From positions 15,277-79,276 of the forward strand of contig CAMVEL010000003.1 in the NCBI GenBank assembly GCA_947166565.1: DNA of 64,000 nt. Direction: 5' to 3'. Numbering within the stretch: the stretch's first letter is position 1; each line of letters starts with the position of its first letter. This document shows, piece after piece, positions 8,694 through 29,651 of this stretch. The stretch comes from an uncultured Erysipelotrichaceae bacterium (GTDB lineage: Bacteria; Bacillota_I; Bacilli_A; RFN20; CAG-826). A program made the translations under genes and the position numbers. Below the pieces are notes generated by a model that worked only from the letters and a program-made list of their open reading frames with translations, did no database searches and had not been told where the DNA came from.

Positions 8694-8721
8694 TTAGCTG
8701 GCATTGAGCAAATTGAGGATA

Positions 8722-10732: not shown

Positions 10733-10786
10733 ACTTTATTGTTAAGGGTTCTTTATAAAATAAGAGATACGTGTATTTGATTTTGG

Positions 10787-11242: not shown

Positions 11243-11262
11243 GCTATCTCCCCTACTTATCC

Positions 11263-11559: not shown

Positions 11560-11659
11560 GTTGGGACTCCGACTATAGATTATCGTCAAGGGAGAGGAAG
11601 GCTCACTTAAAAACAATCTCTAGGTTCTTGATGATATAAATATAACTCAACCAATGATT

Positions 11660-13054: not shown

Positions 13055-13072
13055 CGTTTGACCCTTCTTTAA

Positions 13073-13279: not shown

Positions 13280-13300
13280 GCTTCTACTCCTATGGTTGTC

Positions 13301-13338
13301 ATTATACTATCATCCCATCTGTCACAAAATCGCCACAG
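13301..13338 (-). promoter_or_regulatory. candidate promoter and operator dedicated to the precursor gene
   Basis: The reverse strand has TATAAT (13306-13301) preceded by a TTTGTG -35-like box. This box overlaps the imperfect palindrome CTGTGGC-gatttt-GTGACAG (13338-13319). The site lies in the 66-nt gap between the HipA-like gene and the precursor. Confidence 0.35.
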
Positions 13339-13345
13339 ATAATAA

Positions 13346-14548: not shown

Positions 14549-14614
14549 AATGCCCGCTAAGTTTAGGTTAGGGCCAGCCACAAAGGTGTCACAAAAAAAC
14601 AAAGAATAAGAATA

Positions 14615-15373: not shown

Positions 15374-15375
15374 AT

Positions 15376-16647
15376 TTATCTCCCTTTCTTCGGAAATGTG
15401 GCCACCGCCTTCGCCCCCTTATTTGGTTCGCTTTCCATATGGAGAGAGCCACCTGACATCTTGGCAATACGATATGCGATGTTGTTGAGCCCGAAATGCT
15501 TATTGGAGGCAAAATCGACTCCATCCTTATCAAAGCCGATGCCATTATCCTCTATTTTGACGATATAGGCATCATCGTCTTCGTAGGTCGATATCTTGAC
15601 GGTACCCCCTTCCATCTTCTTGAGGATGCCGTGCTTGATCGCGTTTTCCACTAAGGGTTGGACGCTTAATGGGGGAAGGTAGAAATCGGTGACGTCGAGG
15701 TCGTAGATGACGTTTATCCTATCGGGGAAACGCAATTCCTCCAAGGCGATGAAGGTCTTGATATGGCGGAGTTCATCCTCAAAGGGGATGAGGTGGCTTT
15801 CGGTCAAGGTCGAGAGGTTTATCCTTAGGTAAGCGGTGAAATCATCGAGGGCCTTCTGGGCTTTCTCGGGGTCAAGGGGGATGAGGGTGGAGATCGCCGA
15901 TAATGAGTTATAGACGAAATGGGGCTGGATCTGCGAGAGCATGACCCTGATTTGGGCCTCTTTGGCTTTCTCTTCCTCTTTTGCCAATTTGACGTTTTTC
16001 TCGACGTTAAGGAAGAAGAACAATACCTCGATCGCGACGATTATCGAGACATAGGCGATCGCATAGCCTTTGAAGAAATTCTGGAAGATGATCGCGATAA
16101 GGGGAAGGACGCAATAGGTCGCGAAGGCCGCCTTCTCGCGGATTTGCAGCTGTTTATGGGTGATCGCGGTAAAGAAGACGATCGCCAGCATCAAGAACTG
16201 ATAACCTTGGCTAAGGAACATCGTTTTCTCACGTATGTATTCCCCGTTTTCCGCGTGGAAGAACATCGGGACGAAGATATTGAGGATATCGAGGATCGCG
16301 AATATCGCGAAGGCGGCGATGTTGGTTATGTTTAGGGCCTTCTGCGTCTTTTCCTTTAATTCCACGTAATTCCTCATATAAACGTAGAGGAAAAAGACCT
16401 CAAGGTTATTCGCGATATAGAAGGATGTGTAGAAGGCCATTATGAGGGCGTTGCTCGTATGGTTGGCCTTAATGAAGGTAAAGGTGAAATAGGCCGCGAA
16501 ATGGAAGGCGGTGAAAGCCAGGAATATCAAAAGGGAGCCCTCATCGTGCCTTCTGTTCTTCTTTATCGATAGGCTAACGATATGGACAGTGAGGATAACG
16601 AATCCGATCAGGCAGACCGCTGCATTGAAAACGGCGTTGTTGCTCAT
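15376..16647 (-). CDS. membrane sensor histidine kinase, LytS/YehU type (His_kinase PF06580-like plus HATPase)
   Basis: 423-aa ORF with about six N-terminal TM helices. The QIQPHFVYNSLSAI H-box is characteristic of the LytS family. The ATPase motifs are ENAIKHG, DNGIGF and GLNNI. There is a 2-nt gap to the response-regulator gene. Confidence 0.8.
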   Translation of the reverse strand: MSNNAVFNAAVCLIGFVILTVHIVSLSIKKNRRHDEGSLLIFLAFTAFHFAAYFTFTFIKANHTSNALIMAFYTSFYIANNLEVFFLYVYMRNYVELKEKTQKALNITNIAAFAIFAILDILNIFVPMFFHAENGEYIREKTMFLSQGYQFLMLAIVFFTAITHKQLQIREKAAFATYCVLPLIAIIFQNFFKGYAIAYVSIIVAIEVLFFFLNVEKNVKLAKEEEKAKEAQIRVMLSQIQPHFVYNSLSAISTLIPLDPEKAQKALDDFTAYLRINLSTLTESHLIPFEDELRHIKTFIALEELRFPDRINVIYDLDVTDFYLPPLSVQPLVENAIKHGILKKMEGGTVKISTYEDDDAYIVKIEDNGIGFDKDGVDFASNKHFGLNNIAYRIAKMSGGSLHMESEPNKGAKAVATFPKKGR

Positions 16648-16814
16648 GGGTTAATCATCCTACAAATGGAGGTTAATTTCTATCTTAGGATAGGGTTAAA
16701 CGAAAACTCCGGTAGGAATTCGCTTCTTTTCCTGTGGCAAATTTGTGACACGCCTAACATATAATGTGCCTCGTTAGTTTTAATAGAAGCTAAAAAATAT
16801 AAAAAGGAGAACGC

Positions 16815-17471
16815 ATGAAATCCAAATCCATAATCATATCCATGGTGCTAGGCCTAAGTGCCGGCAGCGCCATATTCGCGAACCATTTCCTCAATAACGG
16901 TGGCACGCCCAGCACAATTGTTGCTGAGGGTGAAGTAATTGCTAACCATTCGGTGGAACTCACTGCTTTCCCCTATACCCAAGTAGTCCGTGAAAGTGAC
17001 GGGGATTGGTCAGCACAATATCTCCCCTTCCATTTGACAGACCCCAATAATTACGCCTGCATAATGCAGGATTTCGGTAGACTTAGAAGCCAAATAAACG
17101 CCAACGGCCATCTATTTGTCGGCACATACGGCCTGTGTAACAGTTTCAATATCCGCGTTGATCCTCTTTCCAATGGCCGTCGCATATTCGAAAACGAGGA
17201 GGAATTCGCTAAAAATAACCCTATCAACGTTCTTGGCTTCAAGGATTTGAAGGGGGTTGATTTCTATATGGGCGAAGGAAACGAGGCAACTCTCAAAGTA
17301 AGTAAATACGACCTCGACATAGTCGATTTATCTTATAATCCGGAGACCAAAGTCAATTCCTTTAGGATTACTGACTCTTCAAGATTTGTTGAATTCGGAT
17401 TCGAATATGAAGGGGCGACAGACGGCCAAAAGCTTGTAATCGATAAGGTTGTCCTCTATTACAACTGCTAA
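16815..17471 (+). CDS. secreted hypothetical protein (N-terminal signal/anchor helix)
   Basis: 218-aa ORF with AAGGAG upstream and a hydrophobic N-terminus (IIISMVLGLSAGSAIFA). No motif recognised. Confidence 0.5.
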   Translation: MKSKSIIISMVLGLSAGSAIFANHFLNNGGTPSTIVAEGEVIANHSVELTAFPYTQVVRESDGDWSAQYLPFHLTDPNNYACIMQDFGRLRSQINANGHLFVGTYGLCNSFNIRVDPLSNGRRIFENEEEFAKNNPINVLGFKDLKGVDFYMGEGNEATLKVSKYDLDIVDLSYNPETKVNSFRITDSSRFVEFGFEYEGATDGQKLVIDKVVLYYNC

Positions 17472-17560
17472 AAAAGCAGGGACATGTGTCGATTTTGCTA
17501 TACATATCCTGATTTAATAGTAATATTTGCCATATAACTCATAAGAAAGGAGTTAAAAAT

Positions 17561-18094
17561 ATGAAAACGAAATTGCCTTTGTTCCTCATCGCCGCGGCTA
17601 TGTTAGCCTCCTGCGGCGGGAACACCCCAACCTCCGAGACTTCGGCCGATCCAGCTTCGGACACCTCCGTGGCCCCTCAAGGAGACGTCTACCTTGATTG
17701 GGTTGCCAAGAACAAGGTCGTCATCGAGCTCTTCAACGCCGGCGATGCCCGCTTCACCTATGGAAACGCCGCGTTAAGCCAAGCTAGCAACACGCTTGAC
17801 CTCAACGATTCCGCCGACCTTGCCTGCTCCTCCACCTTAACCGCGGATCAGGTCGTCAACTTCGTCTATGTCACCGAGACCGCGGATGGAACCGGCTTTG
17901 GTGGCGGTGCTGCCCTTGCCGCCGGTATCAAAGGCGATAGCATCTCCGAATTCCTTAACGATAACGATAACCTCAAGGGCAAAGTCAAAGGCTATGTCGC
18001 GATTAGCTTCGGCGAGACGGTCACTTGGACAAAGGGCAAGAACGCCGCGATGGACGCGAAGATCCAAGCTCTTGTTGACCTTGCGAAAAACTAA
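17561..18094 (+). CDS. lipoprotein, function unknown
   Basis: 177-aa ORF with AAGGAG upstream. The signal peptide ends in the lipobox LASC. A Ser/Thr/Asp-rich linker follows the Cys. Confidence 0.55.
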   Translation: MKTKLPLFLIAAAMLASCGGNTPTSETSADPASDTSVAPQGDVYLDWVAKNKVVIELFNAGDARFTYGNAALSQASNTLDLNDSADLACSSTLTADQVVNFVYVTETADGTGFGGGAALAAGIKGDSISEFLNDNDNLKGKVKGYVAISFGETVTWTKGKNAAMDAKIQALVDLAKN

Positions 18095-18108
18095 TCTGAA
18101 AACACAAA

Positions 18109-18142
18109 AGTCGCCTCAAATCAGTTCGAGGCGATTTTTTTC
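18109..18142. terminator. bidirectional rho-independent terminator between convergent genes
   Basis: The stem is TCGCCTC (18111-18117) / GAGGCGA (18128-18134). It is flanked by an A-run on the left and TTTTTTT on the right. Confidence 0.75.
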
Positions 18143-18155
18143 TTTGGCGGTTGGA

Positions 18156-20201
18156 TTATCCTTTGTAAACGATTTTCCTCTCCATCAACTCTTTGTAATT
18201 GTTGATATCCCACCATAGGCCTGGGGTAGTGATACTTTCCTCGACCTTATTTCCGTTAGCGGCCTCTATCGCCTGCTTGGCGGCTTGGTAGCCAAGCTCA
18301 TAGGAATCCTGGGCGATTGAGCCAAGGAGCAACGGTTTGTCGTTTTCCTCCATCCAGGAGATTTGGCCGTCCCCCGCGTCGAAACCGACGAAGGTGATGT
18401 CGCTATATTTGTTACGGGCGCCCGACTTGATCGCGTCATATATCTGAGTGATGACGGGTTCGCCGGTCATGAAGATGGCCTTCGCCCCTTCTTCTTTCAA
18501 ATAATCGAGGGCGTTCTTGTAGTTTTGGTTCGTGCTATCGGGTTTAGCCTGGAGCTCGACCTTTACTTCCTTATCCTTTGTTAAGGGGTCGCTTTTTGCG
18601 AGCTCATTGAATTTGTCGATGAAGCCATCGCTTCTTTCGAAGGCCGAGACGGTTTCGTCATGGGTGATGACGCCTACCACGTATTTATCGACCATCGCGA
18701 TATCGGTTTTAAGGGTGTCGAACAATCTGGTCGCGGCCAATTGGCCACAGCCATAATTGTCGTTTAAGACCGAGGAGACGATTGGGTTCATGTTGGAGGA
18801 AACAAGGCTCTCGTAATCGATTGGCCAAACGCCCGAATCGAATTGGACCACGGGGATATTGGCTTCCTTGGCCTGCTTCAACAAATCGGAGAAGCCTTCC
18901 CCGATGCAAGAGAGGGCGATGCCATCCACCCTATTGGAGATCGCACTTTGCAAGAGACTTCGTTCGACCGGAAGATTTTCGGGCGTTTCCGTTGGAGGTC
19001 CGCGGAAAAGCAATTTGTAGCCTCCTTCGTCGCAGGCTTTTTGGGCCCCCGCGGCCACGTTACGCCAGAAGGCATGGGTCTCCCCTTTGGAGATGACCGC
19101 GATCGTCTTCTGCTTGGAATTATGGAAGGCGATCGCGAAGGCCATGCCCACGCTCATCGCGACGACGAGGGTCGCGGAGATGATCCCGCTGACCAATATC
19201 TTCTTCTTCGGGATGATCTTGGAATCTTCCTTCTCCACTTTTTTCTTCTTCAAGGTATCGAAAAGGATGGATAAGACGACGATGACGCCGGTTAGGACAT
19301 AGGTGACGTAGGTCGAATTGAAATCGAGGTTAAGTTTAGGCAGGAGGAAATTGAGCCCGCTGCGGATAACGACGAGGAGGTAGGAGCCTAGCAATGTGCC
19401 GATGATGGATACGCTTCCGCCGATTGAGGAAGTCCCACCGATATAGGCCCCAGCTAGAGCCTCCAGTTCGATTCCGTTCCCGCTCGCGGCCACGATCGTC
19501 GCAAATGACGAGGAATAGAAAATACCCGCAAGTCCAGCAAACGTTCCGCATACCGCATAGGCGATGAATTTATATTTGGTGACGTCGATTCCTGATAGAC
19601 GGGTCGCTTCTTCGTTGCTTCCGATTGAAAGGATATAACGCCCGACCTTGGTCTTATGGATGACTACGATTGAGATGGCGGCGAAAACAATAAGCCAGAT
19701 TATCCCGATTGGGAAACCGTTTAGATTGGAGAAGGCCATGTTGAACCAGGTATTGGTTGGGAAGATGATATTGGGGATCGAGACGATGATCGCGCTTAAT
19801 CCGCGGATTGCCATGGAAACGCCTAAAGTCGCAATGAAGGAAGGGATCTTCAATTTGGCGACCAGAAAGCCGTTGAGGCATCCTATCAATAAACCGAGGA
19901 CGATCATGATGGGGATGACCAAGAACAAGGGCATGCCAAGTTGATGGAACCTTCCTGCAAGCAAAGCGGAAGCAATCATCGCGGCCCCAATCGAGAGATC
20001 GACTCCTCCCGTAGCGATGACGAAGCATACGCCTAAGGCCAAGATAGCATAAGGAACGTATGATTGGACCATCGACAAGACATTGAATCGGTCGATGAAA
20101 TTCGGATTGATAATGGCGAAAAGGAGGAAGAGGACGGCCAAAACCGTGAAGATCACGATGTTTTGCCTAAGCATCCTTATTAAGCGATCGCTTCTTTTCA
20201 T
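18156..20201 (-). CDS. sugar ABC transporter permease (RbsC/CUT2-like) fused C-terminally to a periplasmic-binding-protein (RbsB-like) domain
   Basis: The N-terminal ~330 aa are a polytopic permease (GSNEEATRLSGIDV... motif). One extra TM helix follows. The last ~300 aa (KTIAVISKGETHAFWRNVAAGAQKA...IPVVQFDSG) are a type-I sugar-binding fold. The start was set at ATG 20201, which overlaps the ATPase stop (ATGA). The track ORF extends to 20288. Confidence 0.8.
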   Translation of the reverse strand: MKRSDRLIRMLRQNIVIFTVLAVLFLLFAIINPNFIDRFNVLSMVQSYVPYAILALGVCFVIATGGVDLSIGAAMIASALLAGRFHQLGMPLFLVIPIMIVLGLLIGCLNGFLVAKLKIPSFIATLGVSMAIRGLSAIIVSIPNIIFPTNTWFNMAFSNLNGFPIGIIWLIVFAAISIVVIHKTKVGRYILSIGSNEEATRLSGIDVTKYKFIAYAVCGTFAGLAGIFYSSSFATIVAASGNGIELEALAGAYIGGTSSIGGSVSIIGTLLGSYLLVVIRSGLNFLLPKLNLDFNSTYVTYVLTGVIVVLSILFDTLKKKKVEKEDSKIIPKKKILVSGIISATLVVAMSVGMAFAIAFHNSKQKTIAVISKGETHAFWRNVAAGAQKACDEGGYKLLFRGPPTETPENLPVERSLLQSAISNRVDGIALSCIGEGFSDLLKQAKEANIPVVQFDSGVWPIDYESLVSSNMNPIVSSVLNDNYGCGQLAATRLFDTLKTDIAMVDKYVVGVITHDETVSAFERSDGFIDKFNELAKSDPLTKDKEVKVELQAKPDSTNQNYKNALDYLKEEGAKAIFMTGEPVITQIYDAIKSGARNKYSDITFVGFDAGDGQISWMEENDKPLLLGSIAQDSYELGYQAAKQAIEAANGNKVEESITTPGLWWDINNYKELMERKIVYKG

Positions 20202-21694
20202 TGTTTGGCCCTCCTTAATGCATATTCCATAATCTTTTCTTGGCTCGCTTCCCCTATATCGAGGATTTTGACGAGGCTTCCTTCGCACATGACCCCGACC
20301 CTATCCGCGAGGGAGAGAATTTCCTCGAGCTCAGATGAGATCAGGATGATGGATTTCCCTTTCATCGCGAGTTCCTTGATTTTGAGGTATATCTCCTGCT
20401 TGGCGAGGATATCGATGCCCTTGGTCGGTTCATCGAAGATAAAGATGTCCGCGTCCTTCATCAGCCATCTAGCGAGGATGCATTTTTGCTGATTGCCCCC
20501 TGAAAGGTTCCTTATCGGATCGTTGATGGAGGAATATTTAATCGATAATTCCTCCTGATACCTATTGACCTTCCCAATGGCTTTCCTATCGTCGACGAGG
20601 AAGAACTTGGTGTTGTCGTTTAAGGAGGAGATGGTCTCATTGGCGTAGATAGAATGCTCAAGCATCAAGCCGAATTGCTTACGGTCCTCCGAAAGATAGC
20701 AGATGCCATGGGCAATCGCCTCACTTGGATTCTTGATAATGGCTTTCTCCCCCTTGACCTCGATATCGAGGGCCTTGGCCTTATCCGCCCCGAAAAGGGC
20801 TTTGGCGAGTTCGGTCCTCCCGCTTCCCATAAGGCCTGCTAGACCGAATATCTCCCCTTTCCTTAAAGAAAAGGCAATATCATGGAGGAAGCTGGTTTCG
20901 ATCGCGTTGGCCTTCAAGGCGATAGGAGCATCTTCAAGGGTTTGCTCCTGTTCGTTACTTAAGGATTCGATTTCCTTCCCGACCATCATCTTGATAATGA
21001 GGTCACGGGTCGCTTCTTTTTTATCGAGGGTCCCAATCATAACGCCGTCGCGAAGAACGGAGATCTTATCGGAAAGGGCGAGTATCTCATCCATCTTATG
21101 GGAGATATAGACGATCGCGACGCCTTTTTGTTTAACCTTCTCAATCATCTTGAAAAGGTCGTTCACCTCCTTGAAGGAAAGGGCGGTCGTCGGTTCATCC
21201 AAAACCAAAACCGAGACGTTTTGGGAGATGTTCTTGATGATCTCCACCATCTGCATCTTGGCGACGCTTAATTCCTTGACGAGGGAAGAGGGGGAGATAT
21301 CGATTCCATATTCATCAAAGAGCTCAGCCGTTTTCCTAATCATCGCCGTATCGTCGATGAAGGGGCCCTTCCTTATTTCCCTGCCGATGAAGATATTCTG
21401 GGCGACGGTCAGATCGTTCATGAGGTAGAGTTCCTGATAAACCATCCTTATCCCTAGTTTTTGGGCGTCCGCGACGGTTTTGAATTCGACTTTCTCGCCA
21501 TTAAGGAAAATCTCCCCTTCGTCTTTTTGGTAGACCCCGCAGAGGATTTTCGTTAACGTCGATTTCCCAGCCCCATTCTCGCCAACCAAAGCATGGACTT
21601 CGCCCTCTGATAAGCTTAAGGAAACGTCGTTTAGGACCACGTTTTGATGAAAGCTTTTTTTGATATGTTCTAATCTAACGACTTCTTTGCTCAT
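20198..21694 (-). CDS. sugar ABC transporter ATP-binding protein with two ABC domains (RbsA/MglA-like)
   Basis: There are two Walker A / signature / Walker B sets (GENGAGKST ... LSVAKMQMV ... LVLDEPT; GLMGSGRTE ... LSGGNQQK ... FIFDEPT). The start was trimmed to ATG 21694 (MSKEVVRLEHIKKSF). Confidence 0.85.
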   Translation of the reverse strand: MSKEVVRLEHIKKSFHQNVVLNDVSLSLSEGEVHALVGENGAGKSTLTKILCGVYQKDEGEIFLNGEKVEFKTVADAQKLGIRMVYQELYLMNDLTVAQNIFIGREIRKGPFIDDTAMIRKTAELFDEYGIDISPSSLVKELSVAKMQMVEIIKNISQNVSVLVLDEPTTALSFKEVNDLFKMIEKVKQKGVAIVYISHKMDEILALSDKISVLRDGVMIGTLDKKEATRDLIIKMMVGKEIESLSNEQEQTLEDAPIALKANAIETSFLHDIAFSLRKGEIFGLAGLMGSGRTELAKALFGADKAKALDIEVKGEKAIIKNPSEAIAHGICYLSEDRKQFGLMLEHSIYANETISSLNDNTKFFLVDDRKAIGKVNRYQEELSIKYSSINDPIRNLSGGNQQKCILARWLMKDADIFIFDEPTKGIDILAKQEIYLKIKELAMKGKSIILISSELEEILSLADRVGVMCEGSLVKILDIGEASQEKIMEYALRRAKQ

Positions 21695-21797
21695 GTTTGG
21701 ATAAGGCTTTGAATAACTATAGACGCGCATGGGAAGGATAGGCAACCGAAAAAACCATATTATCCCTTCATCATAAAACCATATGGCATTCAATTAT

Positions 21798-22406
21798 TTA
21801 GGGCTTGTATCTAGTGAAACGGATGAACATGAAGATAGGCACGAGGCTCATCAAAATCCCGATTGCTAGAGGGGAATAGGTGCAGACCAAGTCTAGATTA
21901 GGCAGACTCGTATAGGCCTTAAGAATCCTAACGACGAATTCTTCGATCATCACGGCATCCGCCAAAGCGGAGACGAAGGTGATTTCCCTAATGCCTTTGA
22001 CGATTAGATCGCTTCTATCGAGGGCTCCCTTCAAATTGATGAGCGATAAGACGAACATCACCAAGATAAAAGCGATGAAAACAATCGCAACCCACCCCTC
22101 GAACCTGTTCTGATTGGTGATGTCTATCCCCCCGATTTTGAAAACTGAGAAAAGGAGGAAGGTCATCACGAATAAGGCGGTGAGGATAGCCATCGCCAAA
22201 TATCCTTTCCTCTTGCTGGCCCTGCTTTGATGCATGTTCTTAACGAAGAAGACTTTGCAGATAAAGATAAGCAGGGTCGGGATGGAGGCGATAATCAAAA
22301 CCAAGGAGGTAGCCAAAATGGCAATGGTCAGCTTATAGGAAAAACTTATGAGGGAGACTATGGCCCCAAATATGGCAATCCTTTTTGGCGTTAAAACCTT
22401 TCCCAT
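21798..22406 (-). CDS. integral membrane protein, function unknown
   Basis: ORF with about five predicted TM helices. The start was set at ATG 22406 because the track ORF begins at a TTG at 22430. No clear SD. Confidence 0.45.
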   Translation of the reverse strand: MGKVLTPKRIAIFGAIVSLISFSYKLTIAILATSLVLIIASIPTLLIFICKVFFVKNMHQSRASKRKGYLAMAILTALFVMTFLLFSVFKIGGIDITNQNRFEGWVAIVFIAFILVMFVLSLINLKGALDRSDLIVKGIREITFVSALADAVMIEEFVVRILKAYTSLPNLDLVCTYSPLAIGILMSLVPIFMFIRFTRYKP

Positions 22407-22447
22407 AACAAAATCTATTCTACATACCAAAGAAAAAAAGAGGTAGA

Positions 22448-22474
22448 GACGGCGTCATTGGAGCACGATGCGGG
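22448..22474 (+). repeat. cassette-boundary repeat, copy E
   Basis: An A-run is followed by the small hairpin GAC-ggc-GTC (22448-22456). The exact core TGGAGCACGATGCGGG is at 22459-22474. Confidence 0.7.
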
Positions 22475-22521
22475 TCGCCAACCGAGAATTTGTTCACTAT
22501 TTTTCCCAAATAAGGATAGAG

Positions 22522-23073
22522 TCAATCCTTCAAACCTATGAGCGCTTTATCGATCTCCGAATAGATGGCATCGTACTCCTCCATAGATACGATAACGGAC
22601 GGAATCCAAAAGGAGCGAAGGCTCTCCAACGCTTCGTCACCGCCGAACAGCGTTTTTGCTTTGAAGTATGCAACTTGGTTCGCATCGATTTCGTGTGGTT
22701 GGGAAAGGTATAGCCTCGTGAAGCGATCCTCTCCACCATCGAGGCGGCATGAAGTCCATTCACCATTGACCCTTTTCGAGCAATTCCCATCATAGGCGAT
22801 ATCGTAATCCAAGGCCTTGCGGATGGCGGGAGGGAAACGCTCGGGATGGGCAAACTGCTCCGCGTGCCGAAGTTCGTGGAAAAGATAGAAGGCCTTCTCA
22901 GAATCAGGGCATTCCTTAAGCAATGTGGCGTTCATGAAAACGGTATCCGTTTCCGGGTCGTACATGCCGTTTGCTTCCTCGTAACCCTCGGGCATGTCAA
23001 AAGATAGGCGACAGACAAGCCCTGCCTCCAGGCACGAAGAATCGAATAAGGCGCGATAATCAAAATCGGGCAT
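22522..23073 (-). CDS. HExxH-motif protein (putative zinc-metallopeptidase-like), family not recognised
   Basis: 183-aa ORF with AFYLFHELRHAEQ (HExxH). There is a 12-nt gap to the upstream ATPase gene, so the two are likely co-transcribed. Confidence 0.45.
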   Translation of the reverse strand: MPDFDYRALFDSSCLEAGLVCRLSFDMPEGYEEANGMYDPETDTVFMNATLLKECPDSEKAFYLFHELRHAEQFAHPERFPPAIRKALDYDIAYDGNCSKRVNGEWTSCRLDGGEDRFTRLYLSQPHEIDANQVAYFKAKTLFGGDEALESLRSFWIPSVIVSMEEYDAIYSEIDKALIGLKD

Positions 23074-23085
23074 TGCGTTTATCTC

Positions 23086-24459
23086 CTAGAGCAAATACGC
23101 CATGTAACAAGGAAGCGCGACGATTCCGTCGGGACGGACGAAGAGGTTCTTTGGGTGCAGGATGAAGGCTCCCCCGATCCTCGCCTTGAATTTAGCGACG
23201 AACCGCGTCAAGGAGACATTCGCGTAATTCTTCGAGGACTTCACCTCGATGGGGAAAATCTTGGGTCTTGTCTTGCTTCCGTTGGAAAGGATGAAGTCGA
23301 TCTCGATGTCGTTGCGCTTCTTCTCCTCGCTGTAATGGGTGTAGAAATAAAGCTTATGGCCGCTCGCGACGAGCATTTGGGCGATGGCGTTTTCGTAAAG
23401 CATGCCTTCATTGACGGACAGCTTTCCGGACAGGATGGAAGCGTATACTTCCTCCGCGATCAGCTCGTTTTCGTCAAAGGCATGGGAAACAAGCAGGCCC
23501 GTATCCCCCATATAGCATTTCACCGCCGCCCGGGATTCATTGAGGGACAGCCCGACATTGGGGTCCGAGCAGGCGAAGCACTCATTGCAGATCATGGAAT
23601 CCGCGAGCCAGAAAAAGGTCTCCTCGTATTCGGGGTAATTCGTGTCCGATTCAACGCTGCGAAGCCTCACCCTCTTCTCATGCATCGAGAGGAACGAGGG
23701 GATCTGATCGAATATGGAAAGGACCTTGGCTTTGTATTGGGCGTCGGTCTTCATGATGTCGTCGCGGTAATTCACGAGGATGTCCCTTTTCTCCGCGTCG
23801 CAATCGGCGAATTGTTTGCGGGCGAGCAGGAATTTGGATAGCGCCTTGGGCATGCCGCCGACCAGCATGTACTGCTTGAACAGCATCATGGCCCTTTCGT
23901 GAAGTCCGCGCTCCAACGGAATTCTCTTTTCAAAGCAATCCCGGATATAGGGAAGCAATTGTTCTTCCCCTAAGGCCCAAACAAATTCCTCAAAGTCCAT
24001 GGGGTACATCTTGATCTTCCTCTCCTCACTGGGGATCGTGATGCCCTGGACGTTTTGCTTGATGGAGATCAAAGAGCCCGTCTCGATGAAATCGTAACGT
24101 CCGTCCGCGACGAGGTATTTGATGGCCTCCCTGGCCTTTGGATAAGCCTGAACCTCGTCAAAGATGATGAGGCTTTCGCGCGGATAGAGCGTCTTCCCAT
24201 AGGCGGCGGAAAGCACCATGAAAAAGGTATCAAGCTTTTCTAGATTATCGCGGAAGTTATCGAACACGATGCTGCCTGCCTTGTTGAAATCGATGAGGAT
24301 GTAGGAACGGTAATGGGCTTTGGCGAATTCCTCGACCGCCGTGGATTTGCCAATACGCCTAGCCCCCTCGATGAGTAAGGCCTTCTCGCCTTTTGTTTCA
24401 TTCTTCCACTTGAGTAGCTTTTCGTTGATTTTTCTTTTGAAAATGATTTCCGGTTCCAT
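23086..24459 (-). CDS. AAA+ ATPase, divergent AAA_14/DUF4143-type (COG1373-like)
   Basis: Walker A is GARRIGKST and Walker B is LIIFDEVQ. The C-terminal IEIDFIL...PIEVKSS motif is consistent with a PD-(D/E)xK-like DUF4143 end. The start was trimmed to ATG 24459 (MEPEIIFKRK), which is preceded by TAAGGAGA. Confidence 0.8.
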   Translation of the reverse strand: MEPEIIFKRKINEKLLKWKNETKGEKALLIEGARRIGKSTAVEEFAKAHYRSYILIDFNKAGSIVFDNFRDNLEKLDTFFMVLSAAYGKTLYPRESLIIFDEVQAYPKAREAIKYLVADGRYDFIETGSLISIKQNVQGITIPSEERKIKMYPMDFEEFVWALGEEQLLPYIRDCFEKRIPLERGLHERAMMLFKQYMLVGGMPKALSKFLLARKQFADCDAEKRDILVNYRDDIMKTDAQYKAKVLSIFDQIPSFLSMHEKRVRLRSVESDTNYPEYEETFFWLADSMICNECFACSDPNVGLSLNESRAAVKCYMGDTGLLVSHAFDENELIAEEVYASILSGKLSVNEGMLYENAIAQMLVASGHKLYFYTHYSEEKKRNDIEIDFILSNGSKTRPKIFPIEVKSSKNYANVSLTRFVAKFKARIGGAFILHPKNLFVRPDGIVALPCYMAYLL

Positions 24460-24467
24460 GGGATTCT

Positions 24468-24552
24468 CCTTAAAACGCAAAGTAATAATAGTAAAATTCG
24501 TCTTAAAACGCAATGTATCTAATCATGATTATCTCCTTAAAACGCAAGGTAT
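24468..24552 (-). repeat. three direct copies of TTGCGTTTTAAG(GAGA) at 33-35 nt spacing in the ATPase leader
   Basis: The + strand shows CCTTAAAACGCAAAGTA (24468-24484), TCTTAAAACGCAATGTA (24501-24517) and CCTTAAAACGCAAGGTA (24536-24552). Copies 1 and 3 include an SD-like AAGGAGA. Copy 3 is followed by a 7-codon mini-ORF (MIRYIAF*). Confidence 0.6.
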
Positions 24553-24680
24553 CTGTTCCGCGACGAGCTACGATATCGTCACAACAAAAACAATCGGTGT
24601 TCGATTGTCAGGAAGCACGATTAGAAGCCCGTTTTGCTCGTTCTTTGAAACACAATCTTATCTCCAGAAAAAATGTCGAA

Positions 24681-24763
24681 TTTTTGTAACCCAAATGTAA
24701 CCCACAAAAATAAAAAACCTCGATGGCATCGATGGAATTAAGGCAACTGGATTGCGATGCGGG
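24681..24763 (+). repeat. cassette-boundary composite repeat, copy F
   Basis: The element reads TTTTTGTAACCC-AAAT-GTAACCCA, then an A-rich tract, then hairpin TCGAT-ggc-ATCGA and GAATTA. Core TGGATTGCGATGCGGG at 24748-24763. It is the same sub-family as copy B. A further core-like GGAAGCACGATT lies at 24611-24622. Confidence 0.75.
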
Positions 24764-24869
24764 AAGTTCTTATGCATTTAACGCCTATTTGTACGGTATT
24801 GCTGGTCATTTTTTAGAGTTTTTTGATTTTTTTTGACCTGTTATATTGCTTTTGCGAATTCTCCAAAAA

Positions 24870-26174
24870 TCATAACCCCAGAAGGAAATCCGCAATGCCC
24901 ACCACATAGGTTCCGTCTTGATTCCGGGTTTCGGGAATCGGGTCGCCAATCACAAGGACGTTTTTCGCTTCTCCGCGCACAAAATCAAATGGCCTGAGTT
25001 CTTTCTTCAGCACATTCGGATCGGTGACGCTTTGACAAATTTGAACGTAAAGAACTTCGTACCCTTTCCTCGCCACGAAATCGATTTCGTAATCCTTGCG
25101 CACGCTTTTCCCGTCTTTATCCTTCCCAACCGTTGGAACCATGCCGACGCTTACCTGGTACCCATTGTATAGAAGTTCGTTATAGACGGCGTTTTCCATC
25201 AGCTGTCCGATGTCGGGGAATCCGAAGTTCAGTCTTGCGTTTCTTAATCCGGTATCGGTGAAATAGTACTTTCGCCCCGCCCCGATCAAAGATCTGCCTT
25301 TCACGTCATAGCGGGAGGCTTCCGAAAGGAGGAAAGCGTCGACGAAGGAATCGATGTAACTCTCCACCGTCTTCGGATCCAGCGATGTTTTGCCTGCGCT
25401 GCGGAGAGTATTTGCGATTTTCTCAACGGTGATGATTTTCCCGACCAAAGAGGACAAGGCGTCGGCCAATTCATCCAGTGCCCAATCCTTTTGGAACCCA
25501 TGATGCTCCAAGATGTCTTTGAAATAAGTCGTTTGGTAGAGCCCTTTTAGATACTCTTCTTTTCCACTTCGTTGTTTTAGGACCGCCAAAGGCATCCCTC
25601 CGTGGAGGAGATATTCGTAAAGAGCCTCCGACTTGGCCCCGCCGACATGGGCGTAGTACTCGGAAAACGAAAGTGGCGCCACGTGGATCTGGGTCGCCTT
25701 GTCGCGGAACTGGGTGACGATGTCACTGGAGAGCATGCGGGAATTGCTTCCCGTCACGTAAAGATCGATGTTTGCGACCGAGGCAAGTCCCATGACCACG
25801 TCGACGAAGGAAATCGTCTGGGGGTCCCCCTTCTTGGCTAGGACGATCTGTCCACCGGTCAGTTCGGGGTTGACGATTTCAAAGACTCGCTGGATCTCAT
25901 CTAGGACAACATAAAGAGTGTCTTGCATCCCTTTTGCCTTTTCTCTGACAAAGGTACTGAGGGTTAAGGGGTTGCGCAGATTCGCGTTGGCGTCGTCGTC
26001 TAGTTCGACAAGAAGGAATTGTTCTTTTTTCACGCCCAAAGAGATTAAATGGCTTTTAAAGATCTCCTTAAGCAAATAGGATTTGCCGCAGCGACGAATG
26101 CCGGTAACGATCTTCGGGAATCCATTTCCCATGCCCATTATTAATTGACCTAAATACTTATCGCGGGGAATCAT
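24870..26174 (-). CDS. AAA+ ATPase of the AAA_14/DUF4143 type, duplicate copy 2
   Basis: 434-aa ORF identical to 6969-8273 except for one residue (IADFLLGL vs ITDFLLGL). Confidence 0.85.
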   Translation of the reverse strand: MIPRDKYLGQLIMGMGNGFPKIVTGIRRCGKSYLLKEIFKSHLISLGVKKEQFLLVELDDDANANLRNPLTLSTFVREKAKGMQDTLYVVLDEIQRVFEIVNPELTGGQIVLAKKGDPQTISFVDVVMGLASVANIDLYVTGSNSRMLSSDIVTQFRDKATQIHVAPLSFSEYYAHVGGAKSEALYEYLLHGGMPLAVLKQRSGKEEYLKGLYQTTYFKDILEHHGFQKDWALDELADALSSLVGKIITVEKIANTLRSAGKTSLDPKTVESYIDSFVDAFLLSEASRYDVKGRSLIGAGRKYYFTDTGLRNARLNFGFPDIGQLMENAVYNELLYNGYQVSVGMVPTVGKDKDGKSVRKDYEIDFVARKGYEVLYVQICQSVTDPNVLKKELRPFDFVRGEAKNVLVIGDPIPETRNQDGTYVVGIADFLLGL

Positions 26175-26246
26175 AACTTTCTCCTTTTTTGTAGAATTCT
26201 ACATTTTTCAGGAAAATTATAATACCGTCTCCACGCTAGCGCAACG
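24916..26246. repeat. 1.33-kb near-identical duplicated segment (partner 7015-8345)
   Basis: See the partner entry. The ~150 bp to the left (24764-24915 vs 6864-7014) are homologous but visibly diverged, with many substitutions and indels. Confidence 0.85.
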
Positions 26247-26315
26247 CAGCGCATCACTTGTTTTATAAGTGTTCTTTTTTTAATTGCTTTATTGCAATTA
26301 AATGGCAATTTTTAG

Positions 26316-26434
26316 ATAGTGCTCTACAAGAAAAAGTTCGAAATTCGTGCGGTAATCGTGCGGTGAATAAACGTATCTATGAAAAAAGTCCCGACGGCGC
26401 CGAGACAATTTCCTTTGGTGGAACACGATGCGTG
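26316..26434 (+). repeat. cassette-boundary composite repeat, copy G (sub-family G/J/K/L)
   Basis: Inverse core ATAGTGCTCTA at 26316-26326. It is followed by CGTGCGG-TAAT-CGTGCGG, then hairpin GTCCCGACGGCGCCGAGAC and AATTT. Variant core TGGAACACGATGCGTG at 26419-26434. Confidence 0.75.
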
Positions 26435-26628
26435 TACAAGGTCAAACGTTTTTGCTCATTGAACACATTTATAAAAGAGCGGTTTTTTTGCATTTTTTAA
26501 TTTTCCGCTCACTTATGAACATTTTCTTTTTGCATTATGGGTAGTGTGAGTGCGAAAGTGGCGTCCGCAAAAGAATCGGTTCAATGCCGTGGGAAATCCC
26601 TCGGGGTTCCTTGATTCAAATCGCGATA

Positions 26629-26786
26629 ATCGTCGCGTTCCGACACGCTTTAAAAGAGGAATGATGATTCCTGAAGATTTTCGTCCACCATAAAAAGCGC
26701 GAAATATAAGTGGGCGATTAATGGGCCGGGTTTTTGAAAAAGTTCGACCGTATCGGATAAATTTTGGTCATGGTTCACGATGCGGG
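26629..26786 (+). repeat. cassette-boundary composite repeat, copy H (sub-family H/I)
   Basis: Inverse-core-like ATCG(TCG)CGTTCC at 26629-26641. It is followed by TGGGCGA-TTAA-TGGGCCG, then TTTTTGAAAAAGT and CGACCGTATCGG, then AAATTTT. Core TGGTTCACGATGCGGG at 26771-26786. About 110 nt align with copy I. Confidence 0.7.
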
Positions 26787-26821
26787 TACAAGGTCAGCCG
26801 AAATATGCGCTCACCGGTAAA

Positions 26822-27031
26822 TTAGTTCCAGGATATCGCGAGGCGCTTGCCACTTCTCGCGCAGTCCGTCAGATAGAGGTTGATGAGCGTTTGATACGGT
26901 ATGCCGGTATCCTTCGCCTGCGCCTTGAAATAGGCGATTGCGTCCTCGGAGAGTTTAATCGTCACCTGCTTCTTGAGTTGCTTGGCGTAGGGGTTCTTCT
27001 TCCCTTTGCTGAAATCGTATTCTTCCCTCAT
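26822..27031 (-). CDS. brnA: BrnA-type antitoxin
   Basis: 69 aa from ATG 27031 (MREEYDFSKGKKNPYAKQLKKQVTIKLSEDAIAYFKAQAKDTGIPYQTLINLYL...), the typical BrnA pattern. It starts 10 nt after the BrnT stop. The longer track ORF (to 27232) overlaps BrnT and is rejected. Confidence 0.75.
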   Translation of the reverse strand: MREEYDFSKGKKNPYAKQLKKQVTIKLSEDAIAYFKAQAKDTGIPYQTLINLYLTDCARSGKRLAISWN

Positions 27032-27041
27032 GTTCCTTTCC

Positions 27042-27326
27042 TCACCTTCTGTAATGGCTCGCTTCGTTCCTTGTGGCTTTCCTGGCCGAGATAATCCGAA
27101 TGACGCCTTCGTTGTCCCTGTAGCAATGGCAGACGACGAGGATCCTCGCGTTGGCGCTGAAGCCGAGGATGACGAAGCGATCCTCAGTCTCGGAATTGTC
27201 CGGATCCGAGATGACCAGGGCGGCATCGTCATAGAATACCGTCTTGGCCTCCTCGAAGCTCACGCCATGCTTGCTCAAATTGGACTTGGCCTTCCTTTCA
27301 TCCCACTCGAAACGTAACTCTTTCAT
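27042..27326 (-). CDS. brnT: BrnT-type toxin (DUF497 ribonuclease)
   Basis: 94-aa ORF, MKELRFEWDERKAKSNLSKHGVSFEEAKTVFYD...ISARKATRNE. This is the canonical BrnT/DUF497 N-terminal FEWD..K...N..KHGV motif. Confidence 0.8.
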   Translation of the reverse strand: MKELRFEWDERKAKSNLSKHGVSFEEAKTVFYDDAALVISDPDNSETEDRFVILGFSANARILVVCHCYRDNEGVIRIISARKATRNEASHYRR

Positions 27327-27390
27327 ACTTATATTATAATTATAATCAACCGTTTTTCAAGGTTGTACGTTCTATCTTCACGCTTTTTTC

Positions 27391-27546
27391 GACGTGCTTC
27401 AGACTAGCGCAAACGTGAGATAAATGGTGGCTTAAGTTTTTCGTCCACCATAATAAATGCGATTTTTAAATGGGCGATAAATGGGGCAGATTTTTGAAAA
27501 AGTCCGACCGTATCGGATAAATTTTGGTCATGGTTCACGATGCGAG
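27391..27546 (+). repeat. cassette-boundary composite repeat, copy I (sub-family H/I)
   Basis: Inverse-core-like GACGTGCTTCA at 27391-27401. It is followed by TGGGCGA-TAAA-TGGGGCA, then TTTTTGAAAAAGT and CGACCGTATCGG, then AAATTTT. Variant core TGGTTCACGATGCGAG at 27531-27546. Confidence 0.7.
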
Positions 27547-27551
27547 AAATG

Positions 27552-27914
27552 CTATTTTTTAAGCCAGAATTTCTTCCCCTTCGTCGCTTTGCCGTTGTTC
27601 TCAACGGTCCCGGATGCACAGATTTCCTTTAAGGCAAGGCTAACCGTGGCATTGTTCACGGAAAGCGTTTTTGCCAACTCGGTCACGCTTGCCTCTCCGA
27701 GTTCGGCCAAAGTATGGATGATCTTCGTCTCCAAATCCGGGGTATTCGTGATCAGATTCTGAGTCATCAAAAAGACCAATGTGGTTCGGGACGGGGCGCT
27801 CGACTGTTCCAAAATGGGGTCCGGAAAGCCCAAAGCGCGCATTCTCCGATAAATGTTTGGGACGCCTTCGCCCGCTTTGTCGCCGATCCTCGCGAGATGG
27901 AGCAGGTTCATCAC
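27552..27914 (-). pseudogene. C-terminal remnant of an AlbA_2/HATPase_c_4-type ('RecG-like') putative regulator
   Basis: The 120-aa ORF begins abruptly in ...ARIGDKAGEGVPNIYRRMRALGFPDPILEQ... and ends with a wHTH-like segment (IIHTLAELGEASVTELAKTLSVNNATV). Full-length relatives carry ~300 more N-terminal residues. No ORF continues upstream. Confidence 0.45.
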
Positions 27915-28042
27915 CCCCTCGTTCCTTGGGTCGCTGTCGCTACAACAACCGATTCATTAATTCATTATTTATTCGTTAGAAAAAACTGTTTTTCATTAAC
28001 AATGTCTAATGAATGGCTGAAAAGGCGCATGGAAATACAGAA

Positions 28043-28160
28043 ATAATGCTCCAAACTTTTTCCATCGAAATCCGTGCGGTAATCGTGCGGGGAAATGTAC
28101 TCTTTTGAAAGAAAACGCCGAATACATCGAGTTTCTAAGACTCGTGGAGCGCGATGCGGG
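28043..28160 (+). repeat. cassette-boundary composite repeat, copy J
   Basis: Inverse core ATAATGCTCCA at 28043-28053. It is followed by CGTGCGG-TAAT-CGTGCGG and a hairpin region GCCGAATACATCGAG. Core TGGAGCGCGATGCGGG at 28145-28160. Confidence 0.75.
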
Positions 28161-28335
28161 AAAACCGTCATAGCAAAGCTGCGATTGCCTGTTTAACGGG
28201 ACAAATTCGCAATATTTTATACTTTTGTCCTGTTATTTCATGTTTACGTAACCTATAGGGCCAATGGATAAGCGCTCTTCTTGAGCCTCTACTACACAAG
28301 CCCATTTATAGAAAACTCTCCCTATAATTATTCCG

Positions 28336-28454
28336 ATAGTGCTCTATTAGAAAAAACGGCAAATCCGTTCGGTAATCGTGTGGTAAATAAGCGTACTTAC
28401 GAAAATAGCCTCAATGCCGTCGATACTATTTTGGCTGTTGGAGCGCGATGCGGG
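28336..28454 (+). repeat. cassette-boundary composite repeat, copy K
   Basis: Inverse core ATAGTGCTCTA at 28336-28346. It is followed by CGTTCGG-TAAT-CGTGTGG. ACGGCA on the left is complementary to TGCCGT in the right arm. A TATTTT box follows. Core TGGAGCGCGATGCGGG at 28439-28454. Confidence 0.75.
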
Positions 28455-28555
28455 CGCTGCTCTGCGGATTAACCGTTTCTTATATATAAATGTGCTCATA
28501 CATATTGTTCGTAATGCGTTTGTCTTTATAATGTAATCGAAAGGAGACAGATAAT

Positions 28556-28849
28556 ATGGAACTCATACAAGTCAGGGTCGATTCCGAGACCAAAGCGGCC
28601 GCCGCAAGTCTTTTCGAAGCCCTTGGCATGGACATCTCCACCGCCGTAAGATCCTTCCTCAAGAAGGCCATCGCCGAAGGAGGAATGCCCTTCGACATGA
28701 AGTTGGACGATTCCACCCGGCGCGCCCTTGTCGCCGTCCGCTCCATGAGAGAGACCTCCGAGGCTAACGGTAACTCAGAGATGACCCTCGAGGAGGTCAA
28801 CGATGAGATTGCAAAGGCAAGGAGGGAAAGGAAGGCTCGCAAGCGATAA
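28556..28849 (+). CDS. RelB/DinJ-family antitoxin
   Basis: 97-aa ORF with AAGGAGA upstream. The N-terminus IQVRVDSETKAAAASLFEALGMDISTAVRSFLKKAI..GGMPF is the ribbon-helix-helix DinJ/RelB signature. Confidence 0.8.
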   Translation: MELIQVRVDSETKAAAASLFEALGMDISTAVRSFLKKAIAEGGMPFDMKLDDSTRRALVAVRSMRETSEANGNSEMTLEEVNDEIAKARRERKARKR

Positions 28850-29264
28850 AGCGGTGCTATGCCGTCGTCGACACCAACGTGCTCGTCTCCTCCATGCTGA
28901 AAAGCGAATCGATACCCGGGCAGGTCGTGGATCTGATCCTGTTAGGCAAAATCGTCCCGCTTCTCAACGAGGAGATCATCGCCGAATACGAAGACGTCCT
29001 CACGAGAAACAAATTCGGCTTCGAGGAGGGGAAGCCCGAAGCGCTCATCGCCAGCTTAAGGGAAAAGGCCATCTTCCTGCCGAGGGAGCACACCGAAGAA
29101 GCTTTCCAGACGAAGACGACATCGTCTTCTTCGAAATCGCGCTCAGCGGGCGCTCCACGATGGATGCGTACCTCGTCACGGGAAACCTGAAGTACTACCC
29201 CGTCAGAAGTTACGTCGTCACGCCACGGCAGATGCTTGAGATCATCGAGGGCGACCCGGATTAA
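28849..29264 (+). pseudogene. PIN-domain (PIN_3-type) toxin gene, frameshifted and lacking a usable start
   Basis: The N-terminal part (..YAVVDTNVLVSSMLKSESIPGQVVDLILLGKIVPLLNEEIIAEYEDVL...LPREHTEEAF) and the C-terminal part (FPDEDDIVFFEIALSGRSTMDAYLVTGNLKYYPV...) lie in different frames. They join at GCTTTCCAGAC (29101-29111). No ATG, GTG or TTG precedes the conserved DTNV Asp in the N-terminal frame after the stop at 28804. Confidence 0.7.
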
Positions 29265-29362
29265 CTCAGGCGTCCGTTCATATTGCTTGGTGACGAAAAA
29301 CGGATATCGCGCACCGCCTCGGCCACCATCAAAACATCGTCAACGCAAATCCCACTCCCATG

Positions 29363-29481
29363 ATAGCGCGCCAACCAAAATGCCTCGAAAATCGTGGTAA
29401 TATCGCGAGACAAATTCTTCAAAAATCAAAAAAAGTGCCGATAGCATCGACACTTTTTTCACATATGGAGCACGATGCGGG
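29363..29481 (+). repeat. cassette-boundary composite repeat, copy L (last copy, abutting core genes)
   Basis: Inverse core ATAGCGCGCCA at 29363-29373. It is followed by ATCGTGG-TAAT-ATCGCGA and an A-run. A 9-bp hairpin AGTGCCGAT-agc-ATCGACACT follows, then TTTTTT. The exact core TGGAGCACGATGCGGG is at 29466-29481. Confidence 0.75.
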
Positions 29482-29651
29482 AATCTTTGCACAAATCTCT
29501 CGGAGCAAATAACACAATATTCTCGGTTTAAAATCCGCAAAGCCCGTTTGTCGGGATTTTCTTAAACTTAATTATTATCTACCAATAGGTTGTTGCACTT
29601 TTGTGCGCTCATGCGTGTATCATTCAAAGAAACCTAGGAGAAAAACCGACC

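Follow-up and report, generated by a model that had tools for sequence, protein, structure and literature searches.

A tandem array of short cassettes bounded by copies of a tRNA-Gly(CCC) 3' end in an uncultured Erysipelotrichaceae bacterium, probably built by accretion of integrative elements that lost their integrases

The window analyzed here, a 64,000-nucleotide stretch of a contig from an uncultured Erysipelotrichaceae bacterium, carries 13 copies of a 16-nt core (TGGAGCACGATGCGGG), all on the + strand and confined to ~2.5-29.5 kb. Using a profile built from 38 copies in the window and related contigs, we detected 10 full elements, in which an arm precedes the core on its left, along with 1 degenerate element and 2 solitary cores; the same search found 0 elements between 30 and 64 kb. 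Full-element cores start at 4349 (B), 6848 (C), 8722 (D), 24748 (F'), 26419 (G), 26771 (H), 27531 (I), 28145 (J), 28439 (K) and 29466 (L). The core of the degenerate copy, D2, occupies 10416-10431, and the solitary cores start at 2550 (A) and 22459 (E). The motif TGGAGCACGAT, allowing ≤2 mismatches, matched the window 34 times, against 15.1 +/- 3.5 times in shuffled sequence.

A prior sequence-only reading of this DNA had proposed an array of short cassettes, each with one composite site at the same end, and the profile and the linkage of arms to cargo bear this out in outline. Its list of copies captured the array and overlooked the degenerate copy at 10273-10431; a core that it placed at 24260 falls inside an AAA_14 gene and belongs to no element, the true copy being that at 24748. 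Copy K had served as its exemplar, and the inverse core, repeats, A-rich tract, hairpin with T-run, and core were all found where it had put them. The features of the array are as follows, with loci outside the window cited by L numbers.

2550..29485, + strand: whole array, with cargo interspersed among 13 co-oriented tRNA-end cores
2550..2565, + strand: solitary core A, the array's distal end, with no arm at its left
4177..4364, + strand: element B, with distal inverse core ATCGTGCTTAA, repeats TGTAACCCAAA (two copies), hairpin CCGATGGCATCGAGG and core TGGAACGCGATGCGGG
6766..6863, + strand: element C, without a convincing inverse core
8604..8737, + strand: element D; positions 8622-8641 read on the - strand TTGGTGGACGAGAACTACTC, identical (20/20) to the first 20 nt of the L344 integrase ORF
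10273..10431, + strand: element D2, degenerate, with inverse core ATCGTGCTTCC, repeats GGTGGTATGAG (two copies), core GGAATCACGAAGCGGG and an integrase-start relic at 10307-10320
22459..22474, + strand: solitary core E, with no arm at its left
24666..24763, + strand: element F', B-type, with core TGGATTGCGATGCGGG at 24748
26302..26434, + strand: element G, sharing 89-96% identity with copies in L059, L006 and L093, whose flanks are unrelated
26629..26786, + strand: element H, with integrase-start relic ATGGTGGACGAA on the - strand at 26680-26691
27391..27546, + strand: element I, with an integrase-start relic on the - strand at 27440-27451
28043..28160, + strand: element J, whose - strand leader AAAAAGTTTGG is identical to the L344 leader
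28336..28346, no strand: copy K, proximal inverse core ATAGTGCTCTA, matching the canonical core in inverted form at 9/11
28354..28370, - strand: copy K, second small hairpin with T-run, between inverse core and repeats
28363..28384, no strand: copy K, direct-repeat pair ATCCGTTCGGT / AATCGTGTGGT, in tandem with an 11-bp period (CGTTCGG-TAAT-CGTGTGG at 28366-28383)
28402..28432, - strand: copy K, hairpin with an A-run and a T-run at its sides; on the tRNA strand, an intrinsic terminator in partial decay
28439..28454, - strand: copy K, core TGGAGCGCGATGCGGG, a 15/16 match to the last 16 nt of tRNA-Gly(CCC)
29306..29485, + strand: element L, the terminal copy, with two inverse cores, at 29306 and 29363
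29427-29461, bidirectional: element L, strong terminator

Together with its arm, the cargo forms units of 0.3-2.5 kb, with genes in both orientations. Within the window it comprises AAA_14/DUF4143 ATPases in five copies (PADLOC candidate PDC-S01), a YhcG nuclease (PADLOC candidate PDC-S02), AbiEi/Eii, BrnT/A, a MarR-like regulator, and RelB with a neighboring 153-aa ORF lacking matches in both Pfam and PADLOC; two cassettes have no ORF. In related loci the cargo includes Thoeris ThsA/ThsB, DUF4417 and AAA_21 together with OLD-like proteins. Proteins homologous to the AAA_14 cargo (83% identity) occur in unrelated contexts from which the element is absent. The RelB cassette has, as read by eye, its own promoter-like sequence. 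Database look-ups of window proteins mostly gave no return.

Related copies come from collection scans, and counts for the family are therefore minima among the matches listed. A one-genome-per-species scan with the 16-mer gave mostly chance matches, together with rumen Bacilli/Erysipelotrichaceae MAG contigs bearing the whole element, and a metagenome scan added further copies among the matches listed. Phage and plasmid collections queried with the element returned no relevant match, and IMG/VR scans with core variants returned chance matches in coding sequence only. One candidate copy, L291, was discarded as a coincidental match in coding sequence.

The core is the end of a tRNA-Gly(CCC) gene. 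In the related metagenome contig L205, ARAGORN and Rfam both identify positions 9-82 as tRNA-Gly(CCC) (66.5 bits), and an H-type element follows directly after this intact gene. The last 16 nt of the tRNA, CCCGCATCGTGCTCCA (L205 67-82), are the reverse complement of the core and span the 3' half of the T-stem, the acceptor strand, the discriminator U and CCA. Since the core is the tRNA end in L205, a copy of that end is the first part of every element on the tRNA strand. Boundary repeats identical to a tRNA gene 3' end are thus present as 13 copies in the window. The intact target tRNA at the array end is present in L205 and absent from the window, where a tRNA scan found none, including no intact tRNA-Gly at the array end. 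Terminal cores retain 20-22 nt of the tRNA; the core of element L with the adjoining AATC makes up 20 nt, and no intact tRNA follows. At the other end of the array, the junction type of core A recurs beside rsmI in L229. The sequence-only reading had recognized the core and missed its identity as the tRNA-Gly(CCC) 3' end, which emerged from ARAGORN, Rfam and L205.

We considered a crossover in the T-loop for internal cassettes and rejected it, as tRNA sequence never continues to the right of internal cores. We saw no likeness between the element and the dif consensus sequences of Xer/dif-type modules (pdif), in which two 11-bp arms bound by Xer enclose a 6-bp spacer in a 28-bp site, and the window contains no Xer gene. 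As a lead only, half-sites GTTCGAT/ATCGTGC flank TCCCGC in the intact tRNA.

On the tRNA strand, a G+C-rich stem with an A-run on one side and a T-run on the other follows the core by 0-16 nt in most of 39 copies. Stem sequences vary while the pairing is kept (GTGTCGAT/ATCGGCAC, CCCTCGAT/ATCGAGGG, GTCAGAC/GTCTGGC, GCCGAC/GTCGGC), and within one subfamily four hairpin pairs show two-sided changes. A terminator scan of the - strand flagged copies G, I and L, in agreement with the earlier reading of a reverse-strand terminator, which proves to be bidirectional in many copies; the hairpin of copy K has a folding energy of -5.0 kcal/mol. What had been described as an AATTTT box is the hairpin's T-run on the + strand, and it is this run that makes the terminator bidirectional. 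The hairpin and T-run constitute a predicted intrinsic terminator that replaces the tRNA's own.

The origin of the left half of the element became apparent from L344. In this locus, 81 nt beyond a D-type core, an ORF begins at TTGGTGGACGAG; its product (P0124) is a Phage_integrase protein that has lost an internal segment, and both of its halves have counterparts in full-length relatives of about 300-333 aa. Window copies D, D2, H and I preserve the integrase start sequence, as do four of five related copies aligned (the exception is L006), and integrase start codons are also retained in L205, L235 and L128. Because leader and first codons are shared with L344, the paired repeats can be placed 15-40 nt upstream of the former start codon. 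The proximal inverse core of the G/J/K/L types takes up the position of this start codon, and in copy K it corresponds by position to the TTG start region of the former integrase gene. As judged from sequence comparison, the left half of the element derives from a decayed tyrosine-recombinase gene, of which it represents the leader and 5' end; the gene has been deleted in every window copy. The parts of this half had been located correctly before; their derivation from an integrase gene had gone unnoticed.

A C-terminal integrase fragment also occurs after L-type arms in L005, L050 and L319, and its close homologues are all truncated. Relatives of the integrase relic at 60-68% identity adjoin hsdS and are shufflon invertases of type I restriction-modification systems, so that the fragment in L005 and L319 could instead be cargo debris. 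An SSV-type split gene was rejected as the source of the truncated integrase, as the terminator and repeats lie between the gene and the core.

No complete integrase gene adjoins any arm in the window or in the related contigs inspected. Pfam searches of 60 long ORFs across the window detected no Phage_integrase domain, tblastn of the integrase-relic lineage against the whole window gave no match, and Pfam searches of 20 ORFs from related loci found no complete integrase. In L319/L337, a 34.7-kb contig that we followed from the last core onward, a 10.6-kb FtsK/WYL/UvrD block is present and no recombinase; a relative of this locus, L336, sits in a 335-kb contig. Two candidate enzymes were set aside. 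A 420-aa protein left of the array is HD-like rather than an integrase (the region left of core A encodes this HD-like protein and a 143-aa protein without Pfam match), and an IS110 transposase in L197 is a single occurrence whose flanks are unlinked to the element.

Across the rumen Bacilli/Erysipelotrichaceae contigs compared, the arm is linked to the left-hand cargo and never travels with the right-hand one. A B/C-type arm accompanies DUF6782 plus AAA_14 in the window as well as in L114 and L110, and an L-type arm accompanies RelB plus the 153-aa ORF in both the window and L114. What precedes or follows these units differs. The RelB cargo is preceded by a K-type arm in the window and by a B-type arm in L114; after DUF6782 plus AAA_14, the window continues with an AAA_14 cassette, L114 with the RelB cassette and L110 with the terminal flank; and a third cargo, recognizable by its 'tacaaggtca' sequence, is found behind three arm types. 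More generally, the presence and order of units vary between genomes, with junctions at the repeat (window versus L110, L114, L136 and L229). Core positions 1-7 track the left arm (TGGTTCA with H-type arms), whereas CGATGCG is invariant, and the exchange must consequently fall in CGATGCG(GG). These comparisons document both the linkage of cassettes to their arms and their reshuffling. With the arm going with the left cargo and exchange taking place in the core, the linkage pattern resembles that of integron cassettes, and to this extent the earlier comparison with integrons holds in outline.

Two observations do not fit exchange at the core alone. The AAA_14 cassette is duplicated (6766-8345 and 24666-26246, 96.6% identity) and its two copies have different right-hand arms, and L005 and L050 have the left half-arm in common and differ in the right half. 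The unlike right arms and this mosaic indicate a second exchange point at or near the inverse core.

An inverted canonical core matching at ≥9/11 lies 90-175 nt upstream in 17 of 37 copies, compared with about 0-2% in shuffled-flank trials, and copies C and F' have no convincing one. The enrichment of the seven inverse cores listed previously therefore withstands a shuffled control; their treatment as one class does not, for they mix two positions, about -103 and -140 to -172. To the inverse cores, the canonical tRNA end is a closer fit than the variant core of the same copy. Counted by eye, the inverse cores of integrase-less copies match the tRNA end at 9-10/11, closer than the start sequence TGGTGGACGAG of the integrase-bearing copy, which matches it at 8/11; this points to recognition of the inverse core by a protein. 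The repeats suggest something similar. Their units co-vary between subfamilies (CGTGCGG, ATGGGCG, GGTGGTA, GTAGGC, GTAACCC), and because both units of a pair change together, they would fit paired binding sites of co-evolving proteins. With at least 6 different repeat sequences within one array, a single resident protein could not read them all. We infer that the repeats and inverse cores are accessory binding sites, either of the integrase or of a partner protein.

Taken with the lack of support for a fold like that of integron attC sites (see below), the evidence from core, terminator, relics and linkage leads us to consider it probable that the array arose by tandem accretion of integrase-less integrative elements specific for tRNA-Gly(CCC), with the boundary element as their tRNA-proximal att arm. 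In uncultured rumen Bacilli/Erysipelotrichaceae, a family of such elements would insert at the 3' end of tRNA-Gly(CCC). Read on the tRNA strand, the arm would consist of the 16-nt core, a replacement terminator, two 11-bp tandem repeats and the integrase leader and start, with the inverse core as an inverted copy of the tRNA's terminal 11 nt that overlaps the integrase start. Because the element brings its own copy of the tRNA end, integration would rebuild the tRNA gene. The enzyme is likely a tyrosine recombinase acting on double-stranded DNA, of a simple type and about 305 aa long. Successive integrations at one site would have stacked the elements, deletions would have stripped every integrase gene from the window to leave units of cargo plus arm of 0.3-2.5 kb, and exchange in CGATGCG(GG) would reorder, add and remove cassettes. 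Cassettes without an integrase may still be movable in trans.

A stronger version of tandem accretion, to which we give tentative credence, is that the array is a working Gram-positive counterpart of the integron, in which integrase-less micro-cassettes, every one with its conserved arm of 120-190 bp, are captured, excised and reordered at the tRNA-Gly(CCC) end. The tyrosine recombinase of ~305 aa would then come from elsewhere in the genome or from a visiting element. If true, the array would be an exchangeable bank of defense and toxin-antitoxin genes in rumen Bacilli.

Less likely, in our assessment, is that the units are inert: stumps of decayed islands that are reordered by homologous recombination between arms and do not move in trans. 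Decay is evident at several places, in the integrase relics that occupy the expected position in several arms, the uniformly truncated close relatives of the relic, the decayed copy D2, the terminator of copy K and the solitary cores A and E, and homologous recombination could account for the mosaic arms of L005/L050 and the unlike right arms of the duplicated AAA_14 cassette. However, unrelated arm types meet the same cargo exactly at the 16-nt core, a sequence too short for efficient homologous recombination, and four MAGs whose flanks are unrelated share G-type arms at 89-96% identity. Copies without an integrase have moreover retained their inverse cores, paired repeats and terminators, with the inverse cores near-canonical.

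It is improbable that the boundary element works as attC sites do, through a single-stranded fold in which the inverse core pairs with the core and a structure-recognizing recombinase acts on one strand. Like attC, the site is one-sided and moves with its cassette, and the inverted core 90-175 nt upstream is far above chance. The folds themselves are inconsistent. In DNA minimum-free-energy folds the inverse core pairs with the core to close a stem in D2 and J only and not in B, G, H, I, K or L; C and F', as noted, have no inverse core to pair. Fold z-scores for G and K are about 0, and the two-fold symmetry that had been proposed for copy K, with ACGGCA pairing to TGCCGT, is absent from these folds. 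RNAalifold recovers a closing stem of 8 bp for the G/J/K subfamily alone; this stem contains G-T wobbles and shows no compensation on both sides, and the H-type family yields no consensus structure. A check of covariation between the inverse core and its own core showed no excess complementarity (8.09 versus 8.06 for permuted partners, P = 0.47). The attC-like fold put forward in the sequence-only reading thus has no consistent closing stem, and compensatory changes are seen in the terminator stem only. Also counting against such a site, inverse cores fit the canonical tRNA end better than they fit the partner core, and the proximal inverse core coincides with the integrase start region. The array likewise lacks the sequence hallmarks of an integron: no intI, attI and Pc were found at its head (60 long ORFs scanned), there are no RYYYAAC ... 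GTTRRRY boxes (the core is that given above and inverse cores are ATCGTGCTCCA-like), and cargo genes face both ways.

A small RNA with a regulatory or guide role, transcribed on the + strand from near the inverse core to the bidirectional terminator, is very unlikely. In G/J/K-type copies the proximal inverse core is preceded by a conserved, extended -10-like motif, ATGG(A/C)AAT, and several copies have a + strand terminator, but the motif is confined to this one subfamily. RNAalifold pairs both repeats through G-U wobbles, again in one subfamily, whereas the repeat sequences of other subfamilies cannot pair; no Rfam family matches at gathering or relaxed thresholds, and the terminator is the sole conserved structure. 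A MITE with 11-bp terminal inverted repeats, which the inverted 11-mer at both ends of units of about 120-190 bp might evoke, is effectively refuted: 13/13 copies are co-oriented within 27 kb of the 64-kb window, one of the two 'ends' coincides with the 3' terminus of a genuine tRNA gene, internal sequence differs by subfamily while the order of parts is constant, and a reading of the flanks, which was unsystematic, revealed no target-site duplication.

Tandem accretion of integrative elements, the reading that we favor, has precedents. Accretion at tRNA and tmRNA genes is known from the ssrA islands of Dehalococcoides (PMC3146451), and integrative and mobilizable elements have been reviewed (PMC5704250). 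Our array resembles those islands and the cis-mobilizable elements (CIMEs) found next to streptococcal ICEs in having direct repeats of an RNA-gene 3' end at every boundary, in stacking its units in one orientation, in the retention of att sites by members without an integrase, and in a strain-polymorphic gene content with junctions at the repeat. It differs in scale and composition. Units of CIME-type accretions measure several to tens of kb, whereas those described here measure 0.3-2.5 kb, with at least 11 in 27 kb and none carrying an integrase; conserved sequence (about 120-190 bp) lies on one side of the core only; and it is tRNA-Gly(CCC) of uncultured rumen Bacilli that is targeted.

The tycheposons of Prochlorococcus use a tyrosine recombinase to insert at the 3' ends of tRNA genes; with each new insertion, older elements are displaced into the island, where partial tRNAs and integrase fragments lie scattered (bioRxiv 10.1101/2020.12.28.424599). 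Unlike the dense integrase-less micro-cassettes of our array, tycheposons usually carry their own integrase and replication genes and number 1-2 per genome. The conserved structured arm further distinguishes the array, as do host phylum and the defense and toxin-antitoxin cargo.

In staphylococci, SCC cassettes, some with recombinase genes and some lacking them, stack up at the 3' end of rlmH (orfX), bounded by direct repeats of the rlmH end and with inverted repeats at the cassette termini. The recombinases of a neighboring cassette act in trans; they are large serine recombinases (Ccr), and the units span 3-60 kb. The target of SCC is a protein-coding gene, in contrast to the tRNA gene used here.

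The layout also invites comparison with integrons, which to our knowledge are essentially absent from Firmicutes. Common to both are short cassettes, some without an ORF, each with one site of ~60-190 bp at the same end; exchange within a short shared core; and, as is typical of sedentary chromosomal integrons, toxin-antitoxin and defense genes as cargo. In contrast to integrons, the array has no intI, attI or Pc, its core is a tRNA end rather than GTTRRRY, it has no conserved imperfect-palindrome fold, its cargo genes point both ways, at least its RelB cassette has the promoter-like sequence noted above, and its arm derives from an integrase leader and a terminator. If our reading is correct, an integron-like layout would be shown to arise from ordinary tRNA-targeting elements through the loss of their integrases, and 'structured boundary elements' can turn out to be tRNA ends, terminators and integrase-leader relics. 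While accretion of this kind is known, its dense micro-cassette form in rumen Bacilli appears to be undescribed; we found no description of the array in the literature on accretion at tRNA genes and on integron-like tRNA cassette arrays. The layout amounts to a bank of small, swappable defense and toxin-antitoxin cassettes behind one short site, and it would supply a defined cis-acting site made up of the 16-nt core, the paired 11-bp repeats and the inverted core. The array would also account for assembly breaks at such loci in these rumen genomes.

Some cores retain 20-22 nt of the tRNA (GGGAATC, GGGAATCGA) before giving way to unrelated DNA:

Window 29466-29485, core retaining tRNA sequence
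L235 2983-3004, the same, in a locus outside the window
L319 13879-13900, the same, in a locus outside the window

The break at these junctions falls in the T-loop, and in this they differ from internal cores. In the intact tRNA-Gly(CCC) of a metagenome locus (L205 56-82), the 6-nt TCCCGC sits between GTTCGAT of the T-loop and ATCGTGC of the acceptor strand, which match as an inverted repeat at 5/7 positions, with ~4% expectation by chance. In form, this arrangement is that of a simple tyrosine-recombinase site. Exchange maps near the GTTCGAT-TCCCGC-ATCGTGC inverted repeat.

Within G/J/K/L-type arms, the second repeat opens with AATCGTG(C), the bases also found in the inverse core and in the 3' acceptor strand of the tRNA; each such arm thus carries 3 or 4 co-oriented ATCGTG-like motifs. 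In G/J/K-type copies, ATGG(A/C)AAT is conserved upstream of the proximal inverse core, at a distance of 8-20 nt, and, on the + strand, resembles an extended -10 promoter.

Window 26354-26361, 28081-28088, 28374-28380 and 29390-29396, AATCGTG(C) starts of second repeats
Window 26296-26315 and 28024-28042, ATGG(A/C)AAT motif (equivalents in related loci L006, L015 and L234)

An AAA_14/DUF4143 cassette occurs twice in the array (window 6766-8345 and 24666-26246; 96.6% identity). The shared sequence stops just past cgtctccacgCTAGCGCAAcg, and the CTAGCGCAA motif at this homology end is also found after the copy I inverse core.

A family of truncated tyrosine recombinases was located in four loci outside the window:

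L005 2390-2705 (+)
L319 10001-10243 (+)
L328 5645-6567
L330 5587-6504

In a set of 5.8 billion proteins, all close homologues (137/137) are only 68-188 aa long. Relatives at 60-68% consist of a SAM_3 ORF and a separate catalytic ORF, and several hsdS genes adjoin these split relatives, constituting type I restriction-modification shufflons.

Other genes were noticed in a related array and in the window:

L197 1909-3312 (-), IS110-family transposase (DEDD_Tnp_IS110 and Transposase_20) within a related cassette array
Window 41284-49316 (+), three successive large ORFs of 1037, 850 and 789 aa
Window 599-2375 (-), 420-aa and 143-aa proteins left of the array

Inspection of the transposase flanks revealed nothing tying it to the element. 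On a 34.7-kb contig, a 10.6-kb block (L337 7853-18460) directly adjoins the last core (variant ...GCGGT) and encodes FtsK_SpoIIIE, WYL, a NERD-like protein and a UvrD helicase, with housekeeping genes at its far end; it contains no recombinase detectable by Pfam and no tRNA-Gly. None of the three large ORFs has a Pfam match, nor does either protein left of the array. The 420-aa protein, HD-like at its N-terminus and acidic in its C-terminal half, has no record in the protein collection searched. GC content at 599-2375 is 0.40 versus ~0.47 elsewhere. Cores D2 and E are separated by 12 kb (window 10432-22458) encoding STAS and anti-sigma-type proteins, a radical SAM/SPASM enzyme, a two-component system and an ABC transporter; this region may be a single large cassette or chromosome backbone dividing two arrays.
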